This document shows positions 1,017 to 38,877 of a stretch of 57,570 bases of DNA, piece by piece (the stretch's first letter is position 1; the number at the start of each line of letters is the position of its first letter). A program made the position numbers and the translations under genes. This stretch comes from a bacterium (GTDB lineage Bacteria > Patescibacteriota > Minisyncoccia > JAHIHE01 > DAOWLE01): contig DAOWLE010000022.1 in the NCBI GenBank assembly GCA_030643545.1, positions 1-57,570 of the forward strand. Reading direction: 5' to 3'. The notes under the pieces were generated by a model that saw only the letters and a list, made by a program, of their open reading frames with translations, was not told the DNA's origin and ran no database searches.

Positions 1017-1412
1017 GGGGATGCTTGGCATCGATAGGAGTTCATTTTAAAAATTGCGGATCGAGGATGTCGATATCTCGTTAAACTTTCGGCAAAAATA
1101 TAAGTGCAAACTTATTTACAAAAGCAAAAGACGCTATCGCTTCGGCGTTTAGCGTTCCTAGCTATGTAACGGTTGCCGCTTAATCGCAGCAATCCATCTA
1201 ATCTTCTGACTCCTGATGGGAAGAATTGGGTGCCAATTTATCAGGATAGATAATTCAGATGTTCTGGCGAATTATCAAAACAAAACAGAACTAAAATTAT
1301 AAAGTTTTTGCCTAATTTATACTTTGTAATTTAAAATAATAATTGGGCTATATTCGTAGAAAATTTTTAGAAAAACTCACTACACGGGAGTTCGATTCTC
1401 CCCATCTCCACC
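1017..1412 (+). ncRNA. ssrA: tmRNA; tag ORF 1106-1183 ANLFTKAKDAIASAFSVPSYVTVAA*
   Basis: 5' GGGGATG pairs with 3' CATCTCCA; T-arm GGGAG-TTCGATT-CTCCC; resume context ATAAGT-GCA; tag ends in AA; next to smpB. Confidence 0.93.
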
Positions 1413-1469
1413 CCGTTCCAAATTTCACAAAGTTGTTTGTTACAATTAAATTTAATAAGCAAAATTACT

Positions 1470-5558: not shown

Positions 5559-5561
5559 AGG

Positions 5562-5635
5562 TGGGCCATCCTGGATTTGAACCAGGGACATCGACCTTAT
5601 AAGGATCGCGCTCTAACCGACTGAGCTAATGGCCC
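5562..5635 (-). tRNA. tRNA-Ile (anticodon UAU)
   Basis: GGGCCAT/ATGGCCC acceptor stem, anticodon arm CGATC-CTTATAA-GGTCG, T arm CCTGG-TTCAAAT-CCAGG. Confidence 0.92.
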
Positions 5636-25291: not shown

Positions 25292-25452
25292 TTTTTCTCA
25301 CCCCTTTTTTCCTAAATTGTTTAATGTGCCGTCTTTGAAAATAACGTATCTTTAAAATCAACCTACCATAAATTAAAAATTCTGTCAAAAAAAGAAGCCA
25401 TCCGAAAATGACTTTTTACTTTATTTGTTTTGAAAAAAAAATAAAATCCCTT

Positions 25453-25902
25453 TTATTTTTTCTTTATAACATCAAACTCCTTCATTATCTCTTTTCTTTT
25501 TGCGACTTTTTTTTCTAGACTGTTATTTGACAAATTTATCTTTCCTTGCAACCACTGTAACTGAGGCAAATGTTTTTCTAATGCAATTGACAAAGCCGCT
25601 ATTGCCGTTGCTTTTCTGTTTTTATCTGACTTATTTAACTTTATTTCCCCCTCTTTTTCTCGCCTTTCAAATTCATTCCCTATATCAATGGCTACTCTTT
25701 TAATATTGTCTTTTGGATCAAATCTTTCCAAGATACCAGAAATATTGTTTCTCATTATTATTTCATCTACCAGTTCTTCCATTGTTTTCGCGTTTCTTTT
25801 TGCCACTTTCCCTGTTTCTTCTTGTTGTGAATATCTTAATAACTCCTTACATTTCATCTTTGCAATATTGGATATCTCAATTAACTTTTTTTCTTCTCCC
25901 AT
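25453..25902 (-). CDS. Hypothetical protein, possible single cyclin-fold (TFB-core-like) repeat
   Basis: IKRVAIDI...KATAIAALSIA resembles TFB cyclin helices; own promoter TTGACA(25979-25974)-N17-TAATCT and SD GGGGGT. Confidence 0.55.
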   Translation of the reverse strand: MGEEKKLIEISNIAKMKCKELLRYSQQEETGKVAKRNAKTMEELVDEIIMRNNISGILERFDPKDNIKRVAIDIGNEFERREKEGEIKLNKSDKNRKATAIAALSIALEKHLPQLQWLQGKINLSNNSLEKKVAKRKEIMKEFDVIKKK

Positions 25903-26003
25903 TTTTTTTAATTCTACCCCCCCTAATTATTAGCGTTCATCTTTAAAGTTAGATTACCGCAAAATAAAAAAAATGTCAACTTTGTTTTGTATTTTTTTAA
26001 AAA

Positions 26004-26124
26004 TTGACCCCGTTCCAATCCTAAAGCATAACTTTCGTTTAAGATAAACAAAAGGCGAAGCCGCCTTACGGCTCTATAATTCTATTACAATAAATCTTGC
26101 GATAGAATTGGAATGGGGTTGACA
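26004..26124. repeat. TTGA-flanked inverted-repeat element abutting a -35 box (copy C)
   Basis: TTGA-CCCCGTTCCAAT...ATTGGAATGGGG-TTGACA. Confidence 0.8.
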
Positions 26125-26235
26125 AAATCCGCTTGCCTTGTTATAAATACAATACCTGACAATAATTTATGATGGGTGATGATTTCAGCACCTTGAAAAT
26201 TAGAAGGAGGAATAAAAAAGGGAGGTAAATAAAAA
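26119..26235 (+). promoter_or_regulatory. Promoter and leader shared with the TFB gene
   Basis: TTGACA-N17-TATAAA with extended -10 TG; GCACCTTGAAAA; double SD AGAAGGAGG / GGGAGGT. Confidence 0.8.
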
Positions 26236-26976
26236 ATGGATATTGTAGATGCATTAAGATTTGTTAAAAGAATTAGCGTAGGTCGATCTTGGATAGAAGA
26301 AAACAGAGGTAAATTATATCTTTTAGGGATAGACCCAAAAAATGTTCTTGCTTATAATATTAAAATAGACAGTGAATGTATTGAAAAAGAAACAAGCAAG
26401 AAAATTCATGGAAAATTAAATTTTTCTGGAGCAAATGTTTTTTGGGACAAGACGATTCCAAGAGAAAAAGCGTCATCAGTGATAATCAGACCGAAAGAAA
26501 TTATTATTATATGGAATAATAACGGATTGAAAGCAGAAAAAACAATTTATATAATGCCAGATAAACAACCCGGGATAAATAAAAAAAATATAGGGAAAAT
26601 AAAAAGGATGCTGCCTAAACCAGTAAAAACAACCATTGATATAAAGAAACTTAAAAAGATACTAAGATTTATAAATCAAAACTGGAAAGTAAGAATAGAA
26701 GGAAAAGAAAATATCTGCAACATTGTTTTCCAAGAAGTTTTCTCGCGCTGGGATTATATAGAAAATGACCGCATAGAAATAGAAAAAGATACGATAAAAC
26801 TAATATGTCAAACTGGCGATATAAACGGAAAAATTAGTATAAAATATACATATCTACAAAAAATAGCGCCGCTGTTATCGGATCCTTTGCGTTTAGCGAT
26901 AAAAACAGAGATGCCACTATACATAGCGACAAAAACAGGAGCAGAATTTTTAATAGCACCTCTTTATAACTTTTAA
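26236..26976 (+). CDS. Divergent archaeal-type DNA sliding clamp (PCNA-like)
   Basis: 246 aa (PCNA length); GIDPKNVLAY compares with AVDPANVAMV; C-terminal YL..I...L.L....EMPL.I.....AEFLIAP. Confidence 0.65.
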   Translation: MDIVDALRFVKRISVGRSWIEENRGKLYLLGIDPKNVLAYNIKIDSECIEKETSKKIHGKLNFSGANVFWDKTIPREKASSVIIRPKEIIIIWNNNGLKAEKTIYIMPDKQPGINKKNIGKIKRMLPKPVKTTIDIKKLKKILRFINQNWKVRIEGKENICNIVFQEVFSRWDYIENDRIEIEKDTIKLICQTGDINGKISIKYTYLQKIAPLLSDPLRLAIKTEMPLYIATKTGAEFLIAPLYNF

Positions 26977-27006
26977 GGACTATATTTAAATAGTCCTCTT
27001 TTTTTA
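26977..27006 (+). terminator. Intrinsic terminator after the PCNA-like gene
   Basis: GGACTAT-ATTTAA-ATAGTCC-TCTTTTTTT. Confidence 0.75.
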
Positions 27007-27031
27007 TTCAAATTAAAACAAAAATAAAAGA

Positions 27032-27145
27032 TTGACCCCGTTCCTAATTTCATAAGACGGTATAATACAAAAAAAGGGCCCAGAGCAACTTCGAATAGTT
27101 GGATTGTAACAGACGGTATTGCGAAATTAGGAAACGGGATTGACA
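27032..27145. repeat. TTGA-flanked inverted-repeat element abutting a -35 box (copy D)
   Basis: TTGA-CCCCGTTCCTAATTTC...GAAATTAGGAAACGGGA-TTGACA. Confidence 0.8.
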
Positions 27146-27262
27146 AAATCTGCCTGTCTTGCTATAAATACAATATCTGACAATAATTTAATGATAGGTG
27201 ATTGTAATTTAGCACCTTGAAAATTAGAAGGAGGGAAAACAAAAAAGGGAGGTAAAAAAATA
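27140..27262 (+). promoter_or_regulatory. Promoter and leader, paralog of 26119-26235
   Basis: TTGACA-N17-TATAAA; TGACAATAATTTA; AGCACCTTGAAAATTAGAAGGAGG; GGGAGGTAAA. Confidence 0.8.
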
Positions 27263-28201
27263 ATGGATAAAAAGAGAATGGGCAGAAAGACAACAGAAAA
27301 GACAGAAAGAGAATATCCCAGAAAATGTCTAGAATGCGGTTCTAAAAATATAGTAACTGGAAATGGAGAAACTTATTGCGCTGACTGCGGATTAGTAATA
27401 ATAGAGAACATTATAGATCTTGGTTCTGAATGGAGCGCGTATGATTCTGAACAAGCAACAAAAAGAATAAGAGTAGGCCCGCCGATGACTTATAGAATAA
27501 ATGATAAAGGATTAAAAGTTCCTATTGAGAAATTTTTAAAAGGAAAAGAAGGACATGCAGGAATAAATACAACAAAGGAACAAAGCTTTATTTTTGCGCT
27601 TTCTCAAATAGAACGAATGTCAAGCGCGCTTAGATTGCCAGAAAATATTAGAGAAGCCGCATCATTATTATACAGAAAAGCAATGCGTAAAAAGTTAATT
27701 AAGGGACGAAGCATAGAAGCCATAACTTCGGCAATTCTTTATATTGTTTGCAGACAATATGGAATACCTCGAACACTTGAAGAGATAAAACAAGTATCAT
27801 GGGAGAATAAAGAGAAAAAAATATATAAAGCTGTAAATCTTCTCTTACGAAAACTTGAACTAAAAATTCCGCCTGCTTCTCCTGTGGACTTTGTACCTCG
27901 CTTTTGTTCTCTACTTGAGTTAAATAAAGAAACAGAGTCAATAGCGTTAGAAATAGCAGGAAAAATAGAATTAAACAATAATGGACAATTACCAACAGGA
28001 GTGACAGCCGGAGCTATTTATATCGCGGCAGCATTAAATGATGATGAGTATCGCGCAAAAAAAGAAATAGCTGAAATCACAGGCGTATCTATTCCTACAA
28101 TCTTTGATAGATCCAAGGAAATATCAAAACAATTAGGCATAGATATGCCTGAAACTAAAAATAGAAAAAGAAGGACAAAAAACTCCTTCTCTTTTTTTTA
28201 A
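27263..28201 (+). CDS. tfb: Archaeal transcription initiation factor IIB (TFB), divergent
   Basis: Zn ribbon CLEC...CADCGLVI; IDLGSEW..YD..Q..KR.RVG.PMTY...DKGL; two cyclin repeats (GRSIE, YIVCRQ..IPRTLEEI, VPRFCS, PTGV.A.AIYIA). Confidence 0.95.
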   Translation: MDKKRMGRKTTEKTEREYPRKCLECGSKNIVTGNGETYCADCGLVIIENIIDLGSEWSAYDSEQATKRIRVGPPMTYRINDKGLKVPIEKFLKGKEGHAGINTTKEQSFIFALSQIERMSSALRLPENIREAASLLYRKAMRKKLIKGRSIEAITSAILYIVCRQYGIPRTLEEIKQVSWENKEKKIYKAVNLLLRKLELKIPPASPVDFVPRFCSLLELNKETESIALEIAGKIELNNNGQLPTGVTAGAIYIAAALNDDEYRAKKEIAEITGVSIPTIFDRSKEISKQLGIDMPETKNRKRRTKNSFSFF

Positions 28202-28242
28202 TTAGAATAAAAAAAAAGACCTCATTTAGAATAATTTATTTT

Positions 28243-28740
28243 TTATCCCATCGTCCTCCTAAAACTCTCTTTCAAATTAGAAACAATATCAAAGTTTTTT
28301 AATTCTTTTGGATCAATCCATTTATATTCCAAATGCTCCCAGTCCAATTTTATCTCGCATTTGTTTTTTAATTTACATAAAACAGGAACAATAATCCAAG
28401 TTTTATTTATTTCAGAATCTATAAATTTATACGATTCCCTGATTTGAATTGATAAAATATTTTCTTTGCTGATTTTTGTCTCTTCCTGAATTTCTTCCAA
28501 CGCTTTTTCCTGAATCGGCTTTACTTCATCAAGATAACCGGCAACCACATTCCATTTTCCCTGATAAGTCCGAACCTTATCGCTTCTTTTCAACAAAAGA
28601 ATTTCGTTTTTGTATTTTATAAAAACAATTATCACTGGCGCGATGTTTGAATTTGAATAATCAATCCTGCCGTCAGAAAACTTCGGCAATTTTTCCGAAA
28701 AATTTTTGATGGTATTTAAAATTTTTTGTTCTGAATTCAT
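28243..28740 (-). CDS. NUDIX hydrolase
   Basis: LLLKRS...GKWNVVAG...ALEEIQEET, LDWEH; likely start MNSEQK. Confidence 0.85.
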   Translation of the reverse strand: MNSEQKILNTIKNFSEKLPKFSDGRIDYSNSNIAPVIIVFIKYKNEILLLKRSDKVRTYQGKWNVVAGYLDEVKPIQEKALEEIQEETKISKENILSIQIRESYKFIDSEINKTWIIVPVLCKLKNKCEIKLDWEHLEYKWIDPKELKNFDIVSNLKESFRRTMG

Positions 28741-28757
28741 AATATTAAAAATTATCT

Positions 28758-29771
28758 TCACCGGCAGAAGCAAAACCAAACTATTAAAAGCAATAAAATC
28801 GTTCTCAAGAGAAAAAATATTTTTAAAATAATCCGATGTTTGTCAGCCCGCAAAATTGCGTACCAGTTCATCGCGTTGACAAACAAAAAAGACCGTAAGC
28901 AGAATTTTAATATTTTCCATCTGTTAAATTTTTTGGACTGCTCTTGCCAATTATATTTTAACTGAATCGCTTCTTTGGCAAAATTAAAATTGAATAATTT
29001 TTGATAACCAAAATTCAAAATCAAATCCATTTCCATCATTCCCCAGAAATTATGCTTATATCCGATTCCTTGCTTAATTTCTTTTTCAACTTCTTCAGTT
29101 GCTTTATTAATTCCTTTGCCAATCGGTTTATCTAAGAAAAATAAAATTGACTCAACAGAATAAATTGCCGCTTTGTCAGACATTTTTAAAGCGATTTTCG
29201 GAAAAAGCAAAGCGCCTAAAACAGAGCAAAAGGAAATATGATAAGGAATTAAAAGCGCTTTTGATTTTTCCCACCAGCTTGGCTTGATGTGAATAATTTT
29301 TCTAATGTCCCGTCCATACAAAATTTTCCCTTCATATTTCATTTTTTGGAAAAGCATTGCCTGTGAAGCAACTAATTTCGCTCCCAAAATTAAATCTCTT
29401 CTTTTTATTTTTCCATTCGTCCAATCAATATCTCCCGGCCCAAAAATTTCAAAAGGCACATAAAGTTTTGTTTTTTCAATTATTTTTTTAATTTTATCTT
29501 TTTTTCCTCCAATAGAACAGGACTCTTCAAATTTTGTCCCGTGTTTTGCGTCTAATTCCCAAAATATTTTATTTGAAAATTCTTTCGCGTTTTCAACCGC
29601 TTCTATTTTTTTCATCTGGATAATCAAGTCCACATCGCTTATTCCTTTCTTCCATTCGCCTCTTGCCGCGCTTCCAAAAAGAAGAATAAAATCCAAATCA
29701 TCGCTGAATTTTTCAGCCAACTTTTGGCAAAATTCTCTTAAAAAATTTTGAACTAATTGCTGGTTTTCCAT
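28758..29771 (-). CDS. Nucleotidyltransferase-domain (Pol-beta/MNT-like) protein
   Basis: ILLFGSAARGE....SDVDL. Confidence 0.8.
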   Translation of the reverse strand: MENQQLVQNFLREFCQKLAEKFSDDLDFILLFGSAARGEWKKGISDVDLIIQMKKIEAVENAKEFSNKIFWELDAKHGTKFEESCSIGGKKDKIKKIIEKTKLYVPFEIFGPGDIDWTNGKIKRRDLILGAKLVASQAMLFQKMKYEGKILYGRDIRKIIHIKPSWWEKSKALLIPYHISFCSVLGALLFPKIALKMSDKAAIYSVESILFFLDKPIGKGINKATEEVEKEIKQGIGYKHNFWGMMEMDLILNFGYQKLFNFNFAKEAIQLKYNWQEQSKKFNRWKILKFCLRSFLFVNAMNWYAILRADKHRIILKIFFLLRTILLLLIVWFCFCR

Positions 29772-29866: not shown

Positions 29867-30646
29867 ATGGCAAAAATTATTACTCTAACTAATCAAAAAG
29901 GAGGCACTGGCAAAACAACCAGCGCCGTGAATTTAGCGGCTTATTTGGCAGCCAAAGGCAAGCTCGTTCTTTTGGTTGACCTTGATCCTCAGGCAAACGC
30001 CACCAGCGGAATCGGCTTCAATCCAAAAGAAGTTTCAAAAAGCTTGTATCATTTTATTTCAGAATTGGAAGATTTTCCAAAAATAATCAGGAAAACAAAA
30101 ATTTTCGGATTGGAAATTCTGCCGGCTAATCAGGACTTAGCCGGATCAACGATTGAATTGATAAATCAGGAAGAGCGCGAATTCAAGTTGAAATTTGCTT
30201 TGGAAAAGCTTGCGAATAATTATGATTATATTTTGATTGACTGTCCGCCAAGTTTGGGAATTCTGACTATTAACGGATTGGTGGCTGCTCAGGAAATAAT
30301 TATTCCGGTTCAATGCGAATATTACGCGCTTGAAGGATTGAGCCAGCTTTTGGAAACAATAAATTTAATCAAGGAAAATCTTGAGCCGAATTTAGAAATT
30401 ATGGGTGCGCTTTTGACAATGTATGATTCCCGCAACCAGCTTTCCCATCAGGTGGCAAAAGAAATTTACCGCCATTTTCCCGGCCGGGTTTTTGACGCGG
30501 TTATTCCGAGAAATGTAAGTTTGGCAGAATCCCCGAGCCATGGGCTTTCCATTCTTGAATATGATTCTTTTTCCAAAGGTGCCAAAGCATATCGGCAATT
30601 AGCAGAGGAAGTTATTGAATTAGAGAAAAAGCATCTTAACATATGA
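29867..30646 (+). CDS. parA: Chromosome partitioning ATPase ParA/Soj
   Basis: NQKGGTGKTT, DLDPQANAT, DCPPSLG, PVQCEYYALEG, IPRNVSLAESPS. Confidence 0.97.
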   Translation: MAKIITLTNQKGGTGKTTSAVNLAAYLAAKGKLVLLVDLDPQANATSGIGFNPKEVSKSLYHFISELEDFPKIIRKTKIFGLEILPANQDLAGSTIELINQEEREFKLKFALEKLANNYDYILIDCPPSLGILTINGLVAAQEIIIPVQCEYYALEGLSQLLETINLIKENLEPNLEIMGALLTMYDSRNQLSHQVAKEIYRHFPGRVFDAVIPRNVSLAESPSHGLSILEYDSFSKGAKAYRQLAEEVIELEKKHLNI

Positions 30647-30672
30647 ACATTTTAACATATTAACAAAATCTT

Positions 30673-31545
30673 ATGGCAAAAAATAGTTTGGGTAGGGGAT
30701 TATCTTCTTTGATTCCCAAAAAGCCCTTGCAAAAAACAAAAACAAATTTAGAAACTTCGGAAAATGAAGAAAAAAATGGAATCGCTTTTATTAATGTTGA
30801 AAAAATTATTCCTAATCCTCATCAGCCGCGTCAGGATTTTAATCTGGAAAAAATTCAGGAACTATCCGACTCAATTAGAGAGCACGGGATTCTGGAGCCG
30901 CTGATTGTCAGTAAAAAAAATTCCCAATGGGAATTAATCGCCGGAGCGCGGCGGCTTGAAGCGGCAAAAAAAGCCGGACTCAAACAAGCGCCGGCGATTA
31001 TCCGCGAAGTTAATGATGAGCAAAAATTGGAAATAGCTTTGGTGGAAAATATCCAAAGGGACTCGCTTAATCCGATTGAAGAAGCGCGCGCTTATCAAAG
31101 TTTGTCCAAGCAGTTTAATTTAACGCAGGAAAAAATCAGCCAGAAAACCGGAAAAAGTAGGACGGTTATCGCCAATACTTTGAGATTATTAAGTTTGCCT
31201 TTGGAAATTCAGAAAGGATTGATTTCTGGAAAAATCAGCGAAGGCCACGGACGAGTGATTTTATCTCTTTCTTTTCCGGAAAAACAAAGGGCGCTCTATC
31301 AAGAAATCATCAGGTCAAATCTGACTGTCCGCCAAGCCGAAGAAAAAGCCAAAAAACTTTCCGACCCGTTTTTTATAAAAAGGATTAAAAAAATTGATCC
31401 GGATATTGAAGAAAAAGAAGAAGTCCTCTCGCAGTCGTTAGGAACAAAGGCATCCATCCAAAAATTCAGCAAAGGCGGAAAGATTGTAATTAGTTTTTAT
31501 TCAAGAGAAGAGTTGGAAAGTTTAATTAATAAAATTGCAAATTAA
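30673..31545 (+). CDS. parB: Chromosome partitioning protein ParB/Spo0J
   Basis: LGRGLSSLI, PNPHQPR, LIAGARR, ENIQRDSLNPIEEA, GKSRTVIANTLRLL. Confidence 0.97.
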   Translation: MAKNSLGRGLSSLIPKKPLQKTKTNLETSENEEKNGIAFINVEKIIPNPHQPRQDFNLEKIQELSDSIREHGILEPLIVSKKNSQWELIAGARRLEAAKKAGLKQAPAIIREVNDEQKLEIALVENIQRDSLNPIEEARAYQSLSKQFNLTQEKISQKTGKSRTVIANTLRLLSLPLEIQKGLISGKISEGHGRVILSLSFPEKQRALYQEIIRSNLTVRQAEEKAKKLSDPFFIKRIKKIDPDIEEKEEVLSQSLGTKASIQKFSKGGKIVISFYSREELESLINKIAN

Positions 31546-36028: not shown

Positions 36029-37411
36029 ATGACCAATGAACAAATTTGGCAAACAGTTTTAGGAGAAGTTGAATTAACTGTTAGCAAAGCTAATTTCACA
36101 ACTTGGTTTAAAAGCACTTCTATTGCTAATCAACAGAATGAAGTGATGATTATTAATGTACCGAATGGATTTACTAAAGAATGGTTGGAAAATAAATATA
36201 ATAAATTTATTTTGAAGTCGCTTAAAAACATTATTCCTGAAATTAAAGAAATTAAATATATCATTGGAAAAATAACGGTAAACCAGCAGATAAGGCCGCA
36301 AATTTATTCTTTAGAAAAAGCAGAAGGAAACAAATTAGAATCTTATCCAGAAGAAATCCAAAAAAAAGATATTCCTCAAGAAAAAATGCAAATCAGTTTA
36401 AATCCGAAATACACTTTTGGATCTTTTGTCGTTGCTTCAAGCAATGAACTCGCCCAGGCAACCTGCGCCGCAATAACTAAAAAAATTGGAAAAATTTATA
36501 ATCCTCTTTTTATTTATGGAGGAGTCGGCTTAGGCAAAACACATCTTTTGCAGGCAACCGGCAATGAAATTTTAAAAAATTATCCGAATAAAAAAATAAA
36601 ATACACCACTTCGGAAAAATTTACAAACGAGCTTATCCAGGCAATTAAAAATCGCCGAATCGCGCATTTTAAAAATGACCACCGCAAAGTAGATGTTTTA
36701 ATTATTGATGATATCCAATTTTTAGCGGGAAAAGAAAAAACGCAAGAAGAATTTTTTCATACTTTTAATACACTCCATGAAGCAAATAAACAAATTATTA
36801 TTTCTTCCGACCGTCTGCCAAAAGCCATTCCTTCTTTAGAAGAACGGCTAATAAGCCGTTTTGAAGGAGGGATGATTGCTGATGTCGGCTATCCGGATTT
36901 TGAAACCAGAATGGCTATTCTTAAAAGTAAAATTAAAGAAATGGATTTTTATATTGATGATGACGCTTTAAAATATATCGCCACTCATATTCAAAAAAAT
37001 GTCAGAGAATTAGAAGGAGCTTTAAATAAATTAGCCGCTACCTGCCAATTTCAGCATCAGGAACCAAATCTCAAAACAACTGAAAAAATTTTGAAAGATA
37101 TTATTTCCAAAACCTTTAAAAAATCTCTTACTCCGCGGCAGATTATTAAAATTGTCGCGGAATTTTACGACATTACTGTTGAATCTTTAAAAAATAAAAG
37201 CCGTAAAAAAGAAATTGTCAGACCTCGGCAGATTTCAATGTTTTTAATGCGCAAAGAAATTAAAAGTTCTTATCCTGATATTGGAATGCATCTCGGCTCA
37301 AGGGATCATACAACCGCTATTCACGCTTTTGAAAAAATTAATAAAGAAATTGAAGATAATAAAAATCTTGAACAGGAAATTAATTTAATTAAAGAACGAT
37401 TGTATGTTTAA
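36029..37411 (+). CDS. dnaA: Chromosomal replication initiator DnaA
   Basis: YNPLFIYGGVGLGKTHL, IDDIQF, QEEFFHTFN, NVRELEGAL, RDHTT. Confidence 0.98.
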   Translation: MTNEQIWQTVLGEVELTVSKANFTTWFKSTSIANQQNEVMIINVPNGFTKEWLENKYNKFILKSLKNIIPEIKEIKYIIGKITVNQQIRPQIYSLEKAEGNKLESYPEEIQKKDIPQEKMQISLNPKYTFGSFVVASSNELAQATCAAITKKIGKIYNPLFIYGGVGLGKTHLLQATGNEILKNYPNKKIKYTTSEKFTNELIQAIKNRRIAHFKNDHRKVDVLIIDDIQFLAGKEKTQEEFFHTFNTLHEANKQIIISSDRLPKAIPSLEERLISRFEGGMIADVGYPDFETRMAILKSKIKEMDFYIDDDALKYIATHIQKNVRELEGALNKLAATCQFQHQEPNLKTTEKILKDIISKTFKKSLTPRQIIKIVAEFYDITVESLKNKSRKKEIVRPRQISMFLMRKEIKSSYPDIGMHLGSRDHTTAIHAFEKINKEIEDNKNLEQEINLIKERLYV

Positions 37412-37770
37412 GGTTGGGTGATATCCTGTTGATAAATTATTAACTTACAGTGGATAAATTTTAAAGTTTTTCTTAGTCAAAAATTTACTAATTTTTATTC
37501 ACAGATTATTAAAAAGTTATTCACAGATTTTCCAGTTAATTATAAATTGTATTGAAAATTTTTTCTTCTTTTGTCATTCCCGCGAAGGCGGGAATCCACT
37601 ATTAAAATAAACAAAATTCTTGCCTTTATAGAAATGATAATTTAATAAAAATTAAGAAATATTTTTATCCACATATCCACACTCTCTATAACTACTACTA
37701 TAATTTATATAAATAAAAAATTATAGTTATAGAGGTATGAAATATAAATTATAACTTTAATAAAAAAACT
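37412..37770. other. oriC in the dnaA-dnaN intergenic region
   Basis: DnaA boxes at 37427, 37449, 37495, 37517 and tandem 37665/37673, then ACTACTACTA (DnaA-trio-like) and an AT-rich tract. Confidence 0.85.
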
Positions 37771-38877
37771 ATGAAACTTATTTGCACTCAGGAAAATTTA
37801 ATTAAAGCTTTGAATGTTGCCGAGAAAATTGTTGGCAGAAATGTCAATCTGCCGATTTTAAATAATATTTTATTGGAAACAGACGATGGGCAGTTAAAAC
37901 TTTCATCAACAAACTTAGAAATCGGCTTGAATTATTGGACAAGAGGAAAAATAGAAAAAGAAGGATCTTTAACTGTGCCGGCAAAAATTATTACCAATTT
38001 TGTGATGAACCTTCCAAAGAAAAATATAGAAATAGAAGTTAAAAATGAAACTTTAAATTTGAAATGCGAAAATTATCAGGCGAAAATTAAAGGCGTAAGC
38101 GCTCAAGAATTTCCTATAATTCCTAAAATAAAAGAAGAACCGTTAGTAATTTTACCAGCGGAAGAATTTAAAAATGCGGCGAACAGAGTAATTTCAAGCG
38201 TGGCTGTTTCAGAAACAAGGCCTGAAATTACCGGCGTTTTTATGAAAATTGAAAAAGATAATTTGACTTTAGCGGCAACTGACAGCTATCGGCTGGCTGA
38301 GAAAAAAATTAAACTGCAAAAACCCGTTCAGGAATCAATTTCAATGATTATTCCAAGAACAACAATAAATGAATTGATTTATATTATTGGTGAGAATCAA
38401 GGAGAATTAAAAATTTCCATTTCCCAGAATCAAATTTTATTTAACTTTAATAATATTAATTTAGTTTCACGCTTAATTGACGGACAATACCCAGATTATC
38501 AACAGATTATCCCCAACTCCTTTAAAATAAAGGCAATAATTAAAACAGCTGAATTAAAAAATGCGGTTAAAATCGCCGGATTTTTCACTAATGCGCAAGT
38601 AAGCGGGATTAAAATTAAATTAGATTTGCCAACAAATAAAATTAAAGTTAACGCGGAAACCGGCGAAGTCGGCGCGAGTAATTCTGAAGTGGAGGCAAAA
38701 ATTGAAGGCGATTCAGTAGAAGTTATTTTTAATTACAAATATATTTTAGACGCTTTAAATAATATGCTGACTGATCAGGTTATTTTAGAAATGAATGATT
38801 CGTCCAGTCCGGTATTATTAAAACCGGAAAATGTTAAAGATTATTTATATTTAATTATGCCGATAAAAACAGAATGA
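37771..38877 (+). CDS. dnaN: DNA polymerase III beta clamp
   Basis: LPILNNILL, STNLE, ATDSYRLAE, SRLIDGQYPDY, LIMPI. Confidence 0.97.
   Translation: MKLICTQENLIKALNVAEKIVGRNVNLPILNNILLETDDGQLKLSSTNLEIGLNYWTRGKIEKEGSLTVPAKIITNFVMNLPKKNIEIEVKNETLNLKCENYQAKIKGVSAQEFPIIPKIKEEPLVILPAEEFKNAANRVISSVAVSETRPEITGVFMKIEKDNLTLAATDSYRLAEKKIKLQKPVQESISMIIPRTTINELIYIIGENQGELKISISQNQILFNFNNINLVSRLIDGQYPDYQQIIPNSFKIKAIIKTAELKNAVKIAGFFTNAQVSGIKIKLDLPTNKIKVNAETGEVGASNSEVEAKIEGDSVEVIFNYKYILDALNNMLTDQVILEMNDSSSPVLLKPENVKDYLYLIMPIKTE

Follow-up and report, generated by a model that had tools for sequence, protein, structure and literature searches.

Transcription factor B (TFB; TFIIB in eukaryotes) characterizes the transcription of archaea and eukaryotes, and we know of no role for a TFB in a bacterial cell. 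Here we analyze a TFB homologue of a bacterium of the Patescibacteriota, encoded on contig DAOWLE010000022.1 of assembly GCA_030643545.1. The window is the whole stretch of 57,570 nucleotides that was analyzed, and the protein of its open reading frame (ORF) 27263-28201 (+) is referred to as the focal TFB. In canonical TFBs, the Zn ribbon docks on RNA polymerase (RNAP), the B-linker enters RNAP and steadies the template strand, and the second cyclin fold reads the B recognition element (BRE) (PMC7289017).

Several described factors can be likened to the focal TFB. TFB3 of Sulfolobus and other atypical TFBs are TFB-derived, cannot replace the canonical factor and act beside it (PMC7289017); unlike the focal TFB, TFB3 comes from an archaeon and works in the very cell that encodes it, and the two are likened by description. 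Shutdown of archaeal RNAP also has precedents. TFS4, a basal-factor paralogue, is a fold stripped of key residues that now acts as an inhibitor, and the focal TFB may resemble it in this respect. Viral RIP (ORF145) exemplifies a foreign genome that shuts down archaeal transcription (for both factors, PMC7289017, PMC5715097, PMC5123050). Both differ from the focal TFB in their unrelated folds, their other RNAP targets and their origin from an archaeon or a virus, and inhibition by the focal TFB is putative. The bacterial sigma factors of DPANN are a mirror case, with the initiation factor of the other domain found in reduced symbiotic genomes that lack its regulators (PMC8204110). There, however, the transfer runs the other way and concerns another protein family. 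Finally, virus-encoded TFB homologues (phrog_20431; IMG/VR loci L155-L162) place the TFB fold on a mobile or parasitic genome. Unlike close kin, they are just 34-38% identical to the focal TFB in all eight loci, and a viral intermediate, of which they give no sign, was rejected.

The ORF of the focal TFB is a real, intact gene for a full-length archaeal-type TFB. It is the sole long ORF at its position, with an intact frame of 312 codons. Pfam detects the TFIIB repeat (PF00382) in two stretches (E 2.9e-28, 98.2 bits, cut-off 23.6) and the Zn_Ribbon_TF family (PF08271; E 6.1e-12, 45.3 bits, cut-off 29), and the four Zn-ribbon cysteines (C22, C25, C39, C42) show no variation across an alignment of 21 sequences (A1). 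The match to the NCBIfam model of TFB (NF001658) is split in 2 stretches and reaches 266.6 bits, under the cut-off of 384 bits. A search against the sequences of solved structures gave 13 distinct matches at E<=1e-5, with human TFIIB at the top (9.8e-38) and the P. woesei TFB core at 1.6e-32. The AlphaFold model, built from a 21-row alignment, has a mean predicted local distance difference test score (pLDDT) of 70.6, the cyclin folds reaching 85-93 and the Zn ribbon 65-76, while residues 1-17, 48-102 and 299-312 are below 50. According to Foldseek, it matches the P. woesei TFB core with template-modelling (TM) scores of 0.87-0.89 (for 1ais_B, TM 0.89, rmsd 1.8 Å, 195 columns). An earlier note, made from the sequence alone, had described the Zn ribbon and both cyclin repeats as retained; four cysteines, two Pfam repeats and confident cyclin folds bear this out, and the structure prediction that it proposed, run for the focal TFB alone, recovered TFIIB and TFB chains. 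A complex prediction for residues 100-296 with a TATA-binding protein (TBP) of ANME-1 (L149) scored 0.19 against a mark of 0.32 and is evidence neither way.

In order to place the focal TFB among its relatives, we used a search of 5.8 billion proteins (441 at E<=1e-3 among 2000 candidates). It returned first 11 clade members (62-76% identity) and then ANME-1/Methanophagales TFBs (53-57%). A collection of species genomes yielded 600 candidate stretches, of which 589 code for relatives. Eighty loci were kept; 76 of them are labelled as archaeal, in most cases as ANME-1, and four are labelled as bacterial: a congener (L020, labelled uncultured bacterium), a Ca. Nealsonbacteria locus (L074) and two Desulfo-labelled bins (L093 and L094, labels unchecked). 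By these searches, the closest known kin outside the clade are the ANME-1/Methanophagales TFBs, and the gene was apparently acquired from methane-oxidizing archaea of the ANME-1 type. For the comparison below, the focal TFB and eight members of its own clade (nine members in all; the clade, to which P0002-P0012 belong, is called the focal clade) were set against four further Patescibacteria TFBs and 24 ANME-1 TFBs. Retention was expressed, for each module, as the share of ANME-invariant cells preserved across the nine-member clade.

ANME-1 genomes (L062, L085, L087, L055 and others) harbor two TFB paralogue clades. Paralogue 1 has a GPEWRAF reader, a long linker with KLKKWQQRTH and a TEVTIRNRYKE helix. 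Paralogue 2 (L062, L085, L087, P0096 and others) has a GPEWR[SA]Y reader, a linker 8 columns shorter (GTPTP..LPARTKRLRGI) and a preserved TIR.RYKE helix. The focal TFB shares Zn ribbon, reader and two cyclin folds with paralogue 1, at 55-59% overall identity and 58% in the second cyclin repeat, and its cyclin folds are nearer to paralogue 1 than to paralogue 2. The N-terminal third of the focal clade is nearer to paralogue 2 (58% versus 42% in the Zn-ribbon region), with which it has in common the GPEWR[SA]Y reader, a Pro-rich turn after DKGL and a short linker.

The 24 ANME-1 TFBs provide the alignment to archaeal TFBs that the earlier note had called for, and deviations were seen in reader, linker and helix-turn-helix (HTH), although not all of them are abnormal. 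The B-reader reads GSEWSAY in the focal TFB and GPEWRAF or GPEWRSY in ANME-1 TFBs, so that E-W-S stands in place of the canonical E-W-R. The loss of the arginine, pointed out before, is real and private to the focal genome: R58 is present in 8 of the 9 clade members, P55 (P55S in the focal TFB) in 6 of the 9. The B-reader of the focal TFB preserves 18 of 22 ANME-invariant columns. After DKGL, the linker is at least 9 columns shorter than in paralogue 1, and KLKKWQQRTH is missing. Throughout the focal clade it has the short form of paralogue 2, without the basic KRLR stretch that paralogue 2 retains, and its identity to either paralogue is 10-17%. The description of the linker as shortened and unrecognizable holds, but its shortness is no abnormality, since ANME-1 paralogue 2 is short too. 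Judged from the alignment, shortness belongs to natural ANME-1 variation, and the degeneracy of the linker exceeds it. In cyclin repeat 1, the focal TFB preserves 39 of 46 invariant columns; losses across the clade are R180W, R189K and Y191V, with R189 and Y191 gone in 9/9 members.

The deviation of the C-terminal HTH is of a different kind. Residues 265-286 read AKKEIAEITGVSIPTIFDRSKE in the focal TFB versus TQKEVSDVTGVTEVTIRNRYKE in ANME-1, and the changes in the HTH are T276S, R281F, Y284S and L287I. Columns T276, R281 and Y284 are invariant in at least 22 of the 24 ANME-1 TFBs, both paralogues included. T276 and Y284 are preserved in none of the nine clade members and R281 in one, residue 281 being F, L, H or R within the clade. 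F281 aligns with the arginine of human TFIIB (...TIR) and P. woesei TFB (...TVR), which we take to be a base-contacting BRE residue. Compared with paralogue 1, the focal TFB has lost the Arg/Tyr pair from both the BRE helix and the equivalent helix of the first repeat. These are the final helices of the two cyclin repeats, and the residues lost there are invariant in paralogue 1 and paralogue 2 alike. Clade retention of ANME-invariant cells is 70% in the Zn ribbon, 83% in the B-reader, 83% in cyclin repeat 1, 80% in cyclin repeat 2, 56% in the HTH and 0% in the linker (1 column). The earlier claim of an altered HTH is confirmed at nearly invariant columns. Ordinary paralogue variation accounts for the RSY reader and the short linker only; the HTH losses are derived and confined to the focal clade.

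The gene belongs to the bacterium in which it was found. The focal genome (G000, with C18, C19, C21 and C44 among its contigs) is Parcubacteria-like and has 45 contigs totalling 845 kb, with completeness at 95% and contamination at 2%. parAB and a tmRNA share the contig with the TFB gene, which is about 8 kb away from dnaA/dnaN, and relatives of the DnaA are labelled Parcubacteria, Pacebacteria or Paceibacterota. The GC content of the TFB gene is 0.342, that of the genome 0.339 and that of ANME-1 TFB genes 0.47-0.50. A misjoined ANME-1 fragment, whether from assembly or binning, would be conceivable in that ANME-1 and the focal bacterium occupy the same habitat. The GC content, however, fits the bacterial genome and not ANME-1. 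A contig from an independent assembler (record 3 of X1, the cold-seep sequencing run of the probable source sample) spans 27104-29262 with 0 differences and at a depth equal to the neighbors, joining the TFB gene to the bacterial NUDIX and nucleotidyltransferase (NTase) genes, and the same gene, promoter and downstream genes recur in a second genome of the genus. We give an artefact next to no credence and regard it as effectively refuted. The focal TFB gene is a long-standing chromosomal resident in a cold-seep Patescibacterium of the Parcubacteria/Paceibacteria type.

It resides there without its known partners. In the focal genome, Sigma70_r2 has 3 matches (three sigma-70 genes), TBP and Rpb5 have 0 matches, and TFS (17.2 bits) and TFE (20.9 bits) remain under their cut-offs. 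TBP is also missing from all five other TFB-bearing genomes of the candidate phyla radiation (CPR). A canonical TFB, such as ANME-1 paralogue 1, shares its genome with TBP and archaeal RNAP; the focal TFB does not. There is a second TFB-like gene, at C18:6610-7221 (L001 1165-1776), whose product of 203 residues comprises two cyclin repeats only, without Zn ribbon, reader and linker. It belongs to a family of 175-203 residue proteins and preserves the canonical BRE helix (TIR.RYKE in 6 of 8 members). The gene adjoins one for an AcrB-like transporter, an arrangement that is syntenic in a genome of the same genus (G002), which carries both TFB paralogues. In a genome of the sister genus (G001), one full-length TFB was found, with GPEWRAF (canonical arginine), a partial linker and TIRGRFKE. 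Few genomes are available, and the comparison only suggests that a division of labor arose once two TFB copies existed.

Because archaeal cells hold the only known partners of its conserved surfaces (dock and cleft of RNAP, TBP), the focal TFB would most likely act on the transcription of an archaeal host. Our tentative preference, held at somewhat less than an even chance, is for a host-directed mimic that would tie up archaeal RNAP and/or TBP unproductively and be complemented by the core-only protein. The presumed episymbiont would target an archaeal, ANME-1-like host. The mimic would engage RNAP and/or TBP of the host but neither read the BRE productively nor open promoters, which would amount to dominant-negative squelching. 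The core-only paralogue could be the complementary half, occupying TBP/BRE promoters but unable to recruit RNAP. Candidates for delivery are a VirB4-type system or a cell-cell bridge; a VirB4-like ATPase ORF is encoded in the focal genome, and a VirD4 match (14.7 bits) is below cut-off. Type IV secretion systems (T4SS) are common across Patescibacteria, and the available text of PMC12102498 defines no signal for a patescibacterial T4SS.

The earlier note had suggested either a decoy that sequesters host RNAP/TBP or a factor of alternative specificity. A host-directed role is a reasonable framing in view of the missing TBP and Rpb5, the ANME-1 kin and the parasitic Paceibacteria, although part of the alteration on which the suggestion was built is natural. 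Parasitism on methanogenic archaea has been published for related Paceibacteria: three lineages, including Ca. Nealsonbacteria, attach to methanogens, and the methanogen cells then have low ribosomal activity (PMC10936435). What is retained in the focal TFB (ribbon, reader, cyclin scaffold) and what is lost (linker, DNA-reading residues), in a bacterium without any known partner, is compatible with a decoy and an altered-specificity factor alike. The latter would be a TFB that acts in trans or with alternative specificity, in the manner of Sulfolobus TFB3, and steers host RNAP to a subset of promoters from which the symbiont benefits. In its favor, both Zn ribbon and reader are retained, the residue of the recognition helix varies in the clade, and short-linker TFBs can work, as ANME-1 itself maintains one. 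Archaea use several TFBs for promoter specificity, and TFB3 activates in trans together with the canonical TFB (PMC7289017). However, loss of the Arg/Tyr pair from the equivalent helices of both repeats suggests a loss of DNA contact over retuning, the linker is more degenerate than that of ANME-1 paralogue 2 and has no KRLR, and target promoters are not known. We consider such re-programming improbable.

Expression of the focal TFB is predicted to start from bacterial-type signals (promoter, leader and GGAGG motifs; Table 1). Among the sequencing runs recorded as containing this stretch, none is of RNA. The promoter was read from the sequence; a promoter scan passed over it, its -10 box ending in A, not T. 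GGAGG-type motifs are found at 27230-27235 and 27247-27252, the second ending 10 nt short of the ATG. The 123 nt before the ATG are the same as in the congener at 110 positions (89%) without gaps, and farther upstream (27040-27139) the two loci are unalignable, with 38 of 88 aligned positions the same. The leader has no Rfam match at E<=1, and the z-score of its fold is -0.11.

Such conservation bears on the alternative that the TFB has been domesticated after transfer, as a DNA-binding regulator, a nucleoid protein or an accessory to the bacterial RNAP, with loss of BRE residues and linker as adaptation to new partners. We think it unlikely overall, but it has several observations in its favor. 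Promoter, leader and ribosome-binding motifs are better conserved than the TFB coding sequence, the GC content is fully ameliorated, the place beside the NUDIX and NTase genes is stable in the genus, and the ratio of dN to dS (omega) is below 1. An export signal was not found in the focal TFB, and other archaeal-like genes of the genome resemble ordinary metabolic acquisitions. The HTH of the core-only paralogue on C18 also has a match to Sigma70_r4 (Pfam) of 21.8 bits, below the cut-off of 24.1. Evidence to the contrary comes from the pattern of retention. The best-kept modules (70%, 83% and 83%) contact archaeal RNAP or TBP and the DNA-reading helix is the worst kept (56%), which counts against a DNA-binding role, because a new role of this kind would predict the reverse. 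In addition, other CPR lineages hold fully canonical ANME-type TFBs despite TBP-less genomes, and TFBs have no known partner in bacteria. With an endogenous function, the focal TFB would be the first factor of the TFIIB fold to be used by a bacterium.

The rate of evolution is informative about a further alternative, that the TFB is a functionless passenger, picked up from environmental or host DNA and slowly decaying. Focal TFB and congener are 64.5% identical at the amino acid level, with dN 0.24, dS 0.52 and omega 0.31-0.53 by three methods; these values are rough, being from one pair in an AT-rich genome. The NUDIX and NTase proteins are 87% and 94% identical, with omega 0.18-0.37 and 0.05-0.10, and dS is similar in all three genes. 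A dN that is 3-9 times that of the neighbors would be expected of a passenger, as would the loss of otherwise invariant motifs (including the private R58S), the extension of the ORF into its terminator and the score below the NCBIfam cut-off. However, omega is not near 1, and all four Zn-ribbon cysteines are preserved in 13 of 13 clade sequences of a second alignment (A2). The family is present in all three genomes of the bacterial family, promoter and leader are conserved, and the cyclin folds are confidently modelled. The genome has shrunk to 845 kb; dead genes are expected not to persist in reduced genomes. The data indicate fast evolution under residual constraint, and with an intact ORF, preserved cysteines and this omega the suspicion of a decaying pseudogene is unsupported. 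A functionless passenger has, in our estimate, a slim chance.

Several observations weigh against the preferred reading of a host-directed mimic. The raised dN could mean relaxed constraint and need not point to an arms race. ANME-1 paralogue 2 has both a short linker and the RSY reader, so that these need not mean a loss of function. In a tree of 45 TFB rows, the focal clade has a support of 100/100 and its placement among TFBs is open. Three other sequences, from Ca. Nealsonbacteria (L074), a protein labelled Minisyncoccales (P0083) and genome G411, nest in ANME-1 paralogue 1 (support 97/92). A tree that unites them with the focal clade nevertheless stands in the approximately unbiased (AU) test (p 0.174), and for this reason repeated independent capture by CPR lineages cannot be claimed. 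Because other ORFs of the genome have ANME-like relatives, the TFB gene may have been scavenged along with many others. The link to an ANME-1 host is inferred from sequence similarity and from the fact that the probable source sample is from a cold seep, and these two grounds are not independent.

Export is a difficulty as well, since by eye the focal TFB has no N-terminus resembling a signal peptide, nor a known secretion signal. The sole candidate is a basic tail, NRKRRTK (residues 300-306), which the earlier note had recorded as following the HTH. The tail is present, but it is translated from a terminator-like hairpin (28169-28190) and a T run. In the congener, the hairpin is conserved directly past the TGA stop, an 8-nt indel separating the two versions; the tail is identical in P0002-P0006 and missing from G002, P0010 and P0012. 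As the congener stops before the conserved hairpin, the tail is best explained as read-through of the ORF into the terminator, rather than as an added part with a function.

A still wider picture, in which a cold-seep Patescibacteria family parasitizes ANME-1 and disarms or re-routes host transcription by means of two stolen, split TFB mimics, is on present evidence doubtful. If true, no earlier case would exist of a bacterium directing a mimic of a basal transcription factor at an archaeon as an effector, and the finding would give a host pointer for an uncultured CPR lineage. The TFB gene could serve as a sequence-based clue to ANME-1-type hosts of an uncultured methane-seep Patescibacteria family, and the two proteins offer a cheap and concrete test of episymbiont control over archaeal hosts. 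They may also be natural separation-of-function TFBs, one with ribbon, reader and core but without linker and BRE reading, the other with the core only and BRE reading, a pair that would be useful for studying initiation.

A survey of other Patescibacteria, proposed in the earlier note, found the TFIIB family in every genome of the bacterial family (3 of 3), in 5 of 32 genomes of the order, in 6 of 401 of a class sample and, over cut-off, in 1 of 401 of a phylum sample, the last being the focal genome. A metagenome scan with the single protein gave no relative; with A2 it gave 45 loci, all ANME-like and at most 55% identical. Fragments 90-97% identical to the 3' half of the TFB gene were present in cold-seep runs from two further studies. 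We found no report of TFB/TFIIB genes in Patescibacteria in a search that left subscription journals and supplementary tables outside. In the available text of PMC12455944, on gene transfer in Patescibacteria, infA is the only initiation factor named, and PMC8407114, as far as available, has Aenigmarchaeota as its subject.

The TFBs of G411 (L014 1039-2382) and L074 (5944-6837) are canonical and of ANME-1 type, with a common LigT-TFB-radical SAM order. That of G411 has 448 residues, with a C-terminal extension of about 140. The TFB gene of L074 sits among murC, the aspartyl-tRNA synthetase gene and efp, and has a GC content of 0.426 versus 0.339 for the locus.

Table 1. Features of the TFB gene and its surroundings in the window
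Feature	Position	Strand	Basis and remarks
tmRNA	1017-1413		
tRNA-Ile, anticodon TAT	5560-5635		
Sigma-70-like promoter (TTGACA, 17 nt, TATAAA)	27140..27168	+	26/29 bases the same in L020
Conserved 5' leader, two GGAGG-type ribosome-binding motifs	27169..27262	+	84/94 bases the same in L020, gap-free
TFB/TFIIB homologue, stop codon included	27263..28201	+	312 aa; Pfam, alignment, AlphaFold, Foldseek
Zn ribbon	27320..27403	+	residues 20-47; PF08271; three strands modelled
B-reader region	27404..27514	+	residues 48-84; GSEWSAY (residues 54-60) at 27422-27442
Shortened, degenerate B-linker region	27515..27571	+	residues 85-103; alignment; pLDDT <50
Cyclin repeat 1	27572..27862	+	residues 104-200; 68% mean identity to ANME-1 paralogue 1
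Cyclin repeat 2	27863..28150	+	residues 201-296; altered HTH / BRE-recognition helix at 28055-28135
C-terminal tail ETKNRKRRTKNSFSFF	28151..28198	+	residues 297-312; encoded by hairpin and T run; pLDDT <50
Bidirectional terminator-like hairpin	28165..28199	both	common to the convergent NUDIX gene; fold z -2.26
NUDIX and nucleotidyltransferase-like genes	28243..29771	-	Pfam; syntenic with TFB in L020
ParA/ParB	29867-31545		Pfam
dnaA-dnaN origin region	36029-38877		MurJ nearby
DnaA	36029-37411		
DnaN	37771-38877		

Just upstream of the TFB promoter lies a variable cassette (25380-27137), with ORFs of 149 (-) and 246 (+) codons, that is missing from L020. In a second cold-seep run (X2), 25379 and 27138 are adjacent on one contig, and there are further contigs in which ~26101/26112 is connected to 27032. 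Neither ORF has a family match. For the 149-residue protein, a relationship to the cyclin fold was rejected (hhalign probability 0.3). For the 246-residue protein as a sliding clamp, there was no sequence match in Pfam, NCBIfam, PHROG or PDB, and its single-sequence model is unusable (pLDDT 30.7); the Atlas gave no more than a hint of phage clusters, in one of which 10% of the members have gp45-slide_C. The -35 box of the TFB promoter marks the end of an inverted repeat at 27037-27145 (arms of ~20 nt, ~70 nt enclosed), which folds with -33 kcal/mol (z -2.6); two X1 contigs break at this repeat with a 29-nt overlap.

The congener locus carries a 138-nt insertion (L020 5857-5994) between ribosome-binding site and TFB start, in which the GGAGG motif is duplicated and which opens an in-frame, Cys-rich N-terminal extension of 46 residues.

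Elsewhere in the focal genome, a radical SAM protein of 500 residues with an HMPTM-type Zn ribbon (C19:7951-9450) is 58.8% identical over 500 aa to a gene on an ANME-like contig. A GH38 mannosidase-like gene (55% over 882 aa) stands beside a HAD phosphatase gene (56% over 273 aa), both ANME-like, at C44:13387-16903, and an MBL-fold protein (C21:1077-1679) is 53% identical over 221 aa to a gene on an ANME-like contig. Judging by these similarities, further exchange between archaea and CPR, in either direction, is possible for the four genes.

At 25869-26135 and 30408-30674, contig depth spikes in more than one cold-seep run, the peaks reaching 183 in X2 and 147 in X1, which suggests that these segments are short elements that are repeated or common to many organisms.

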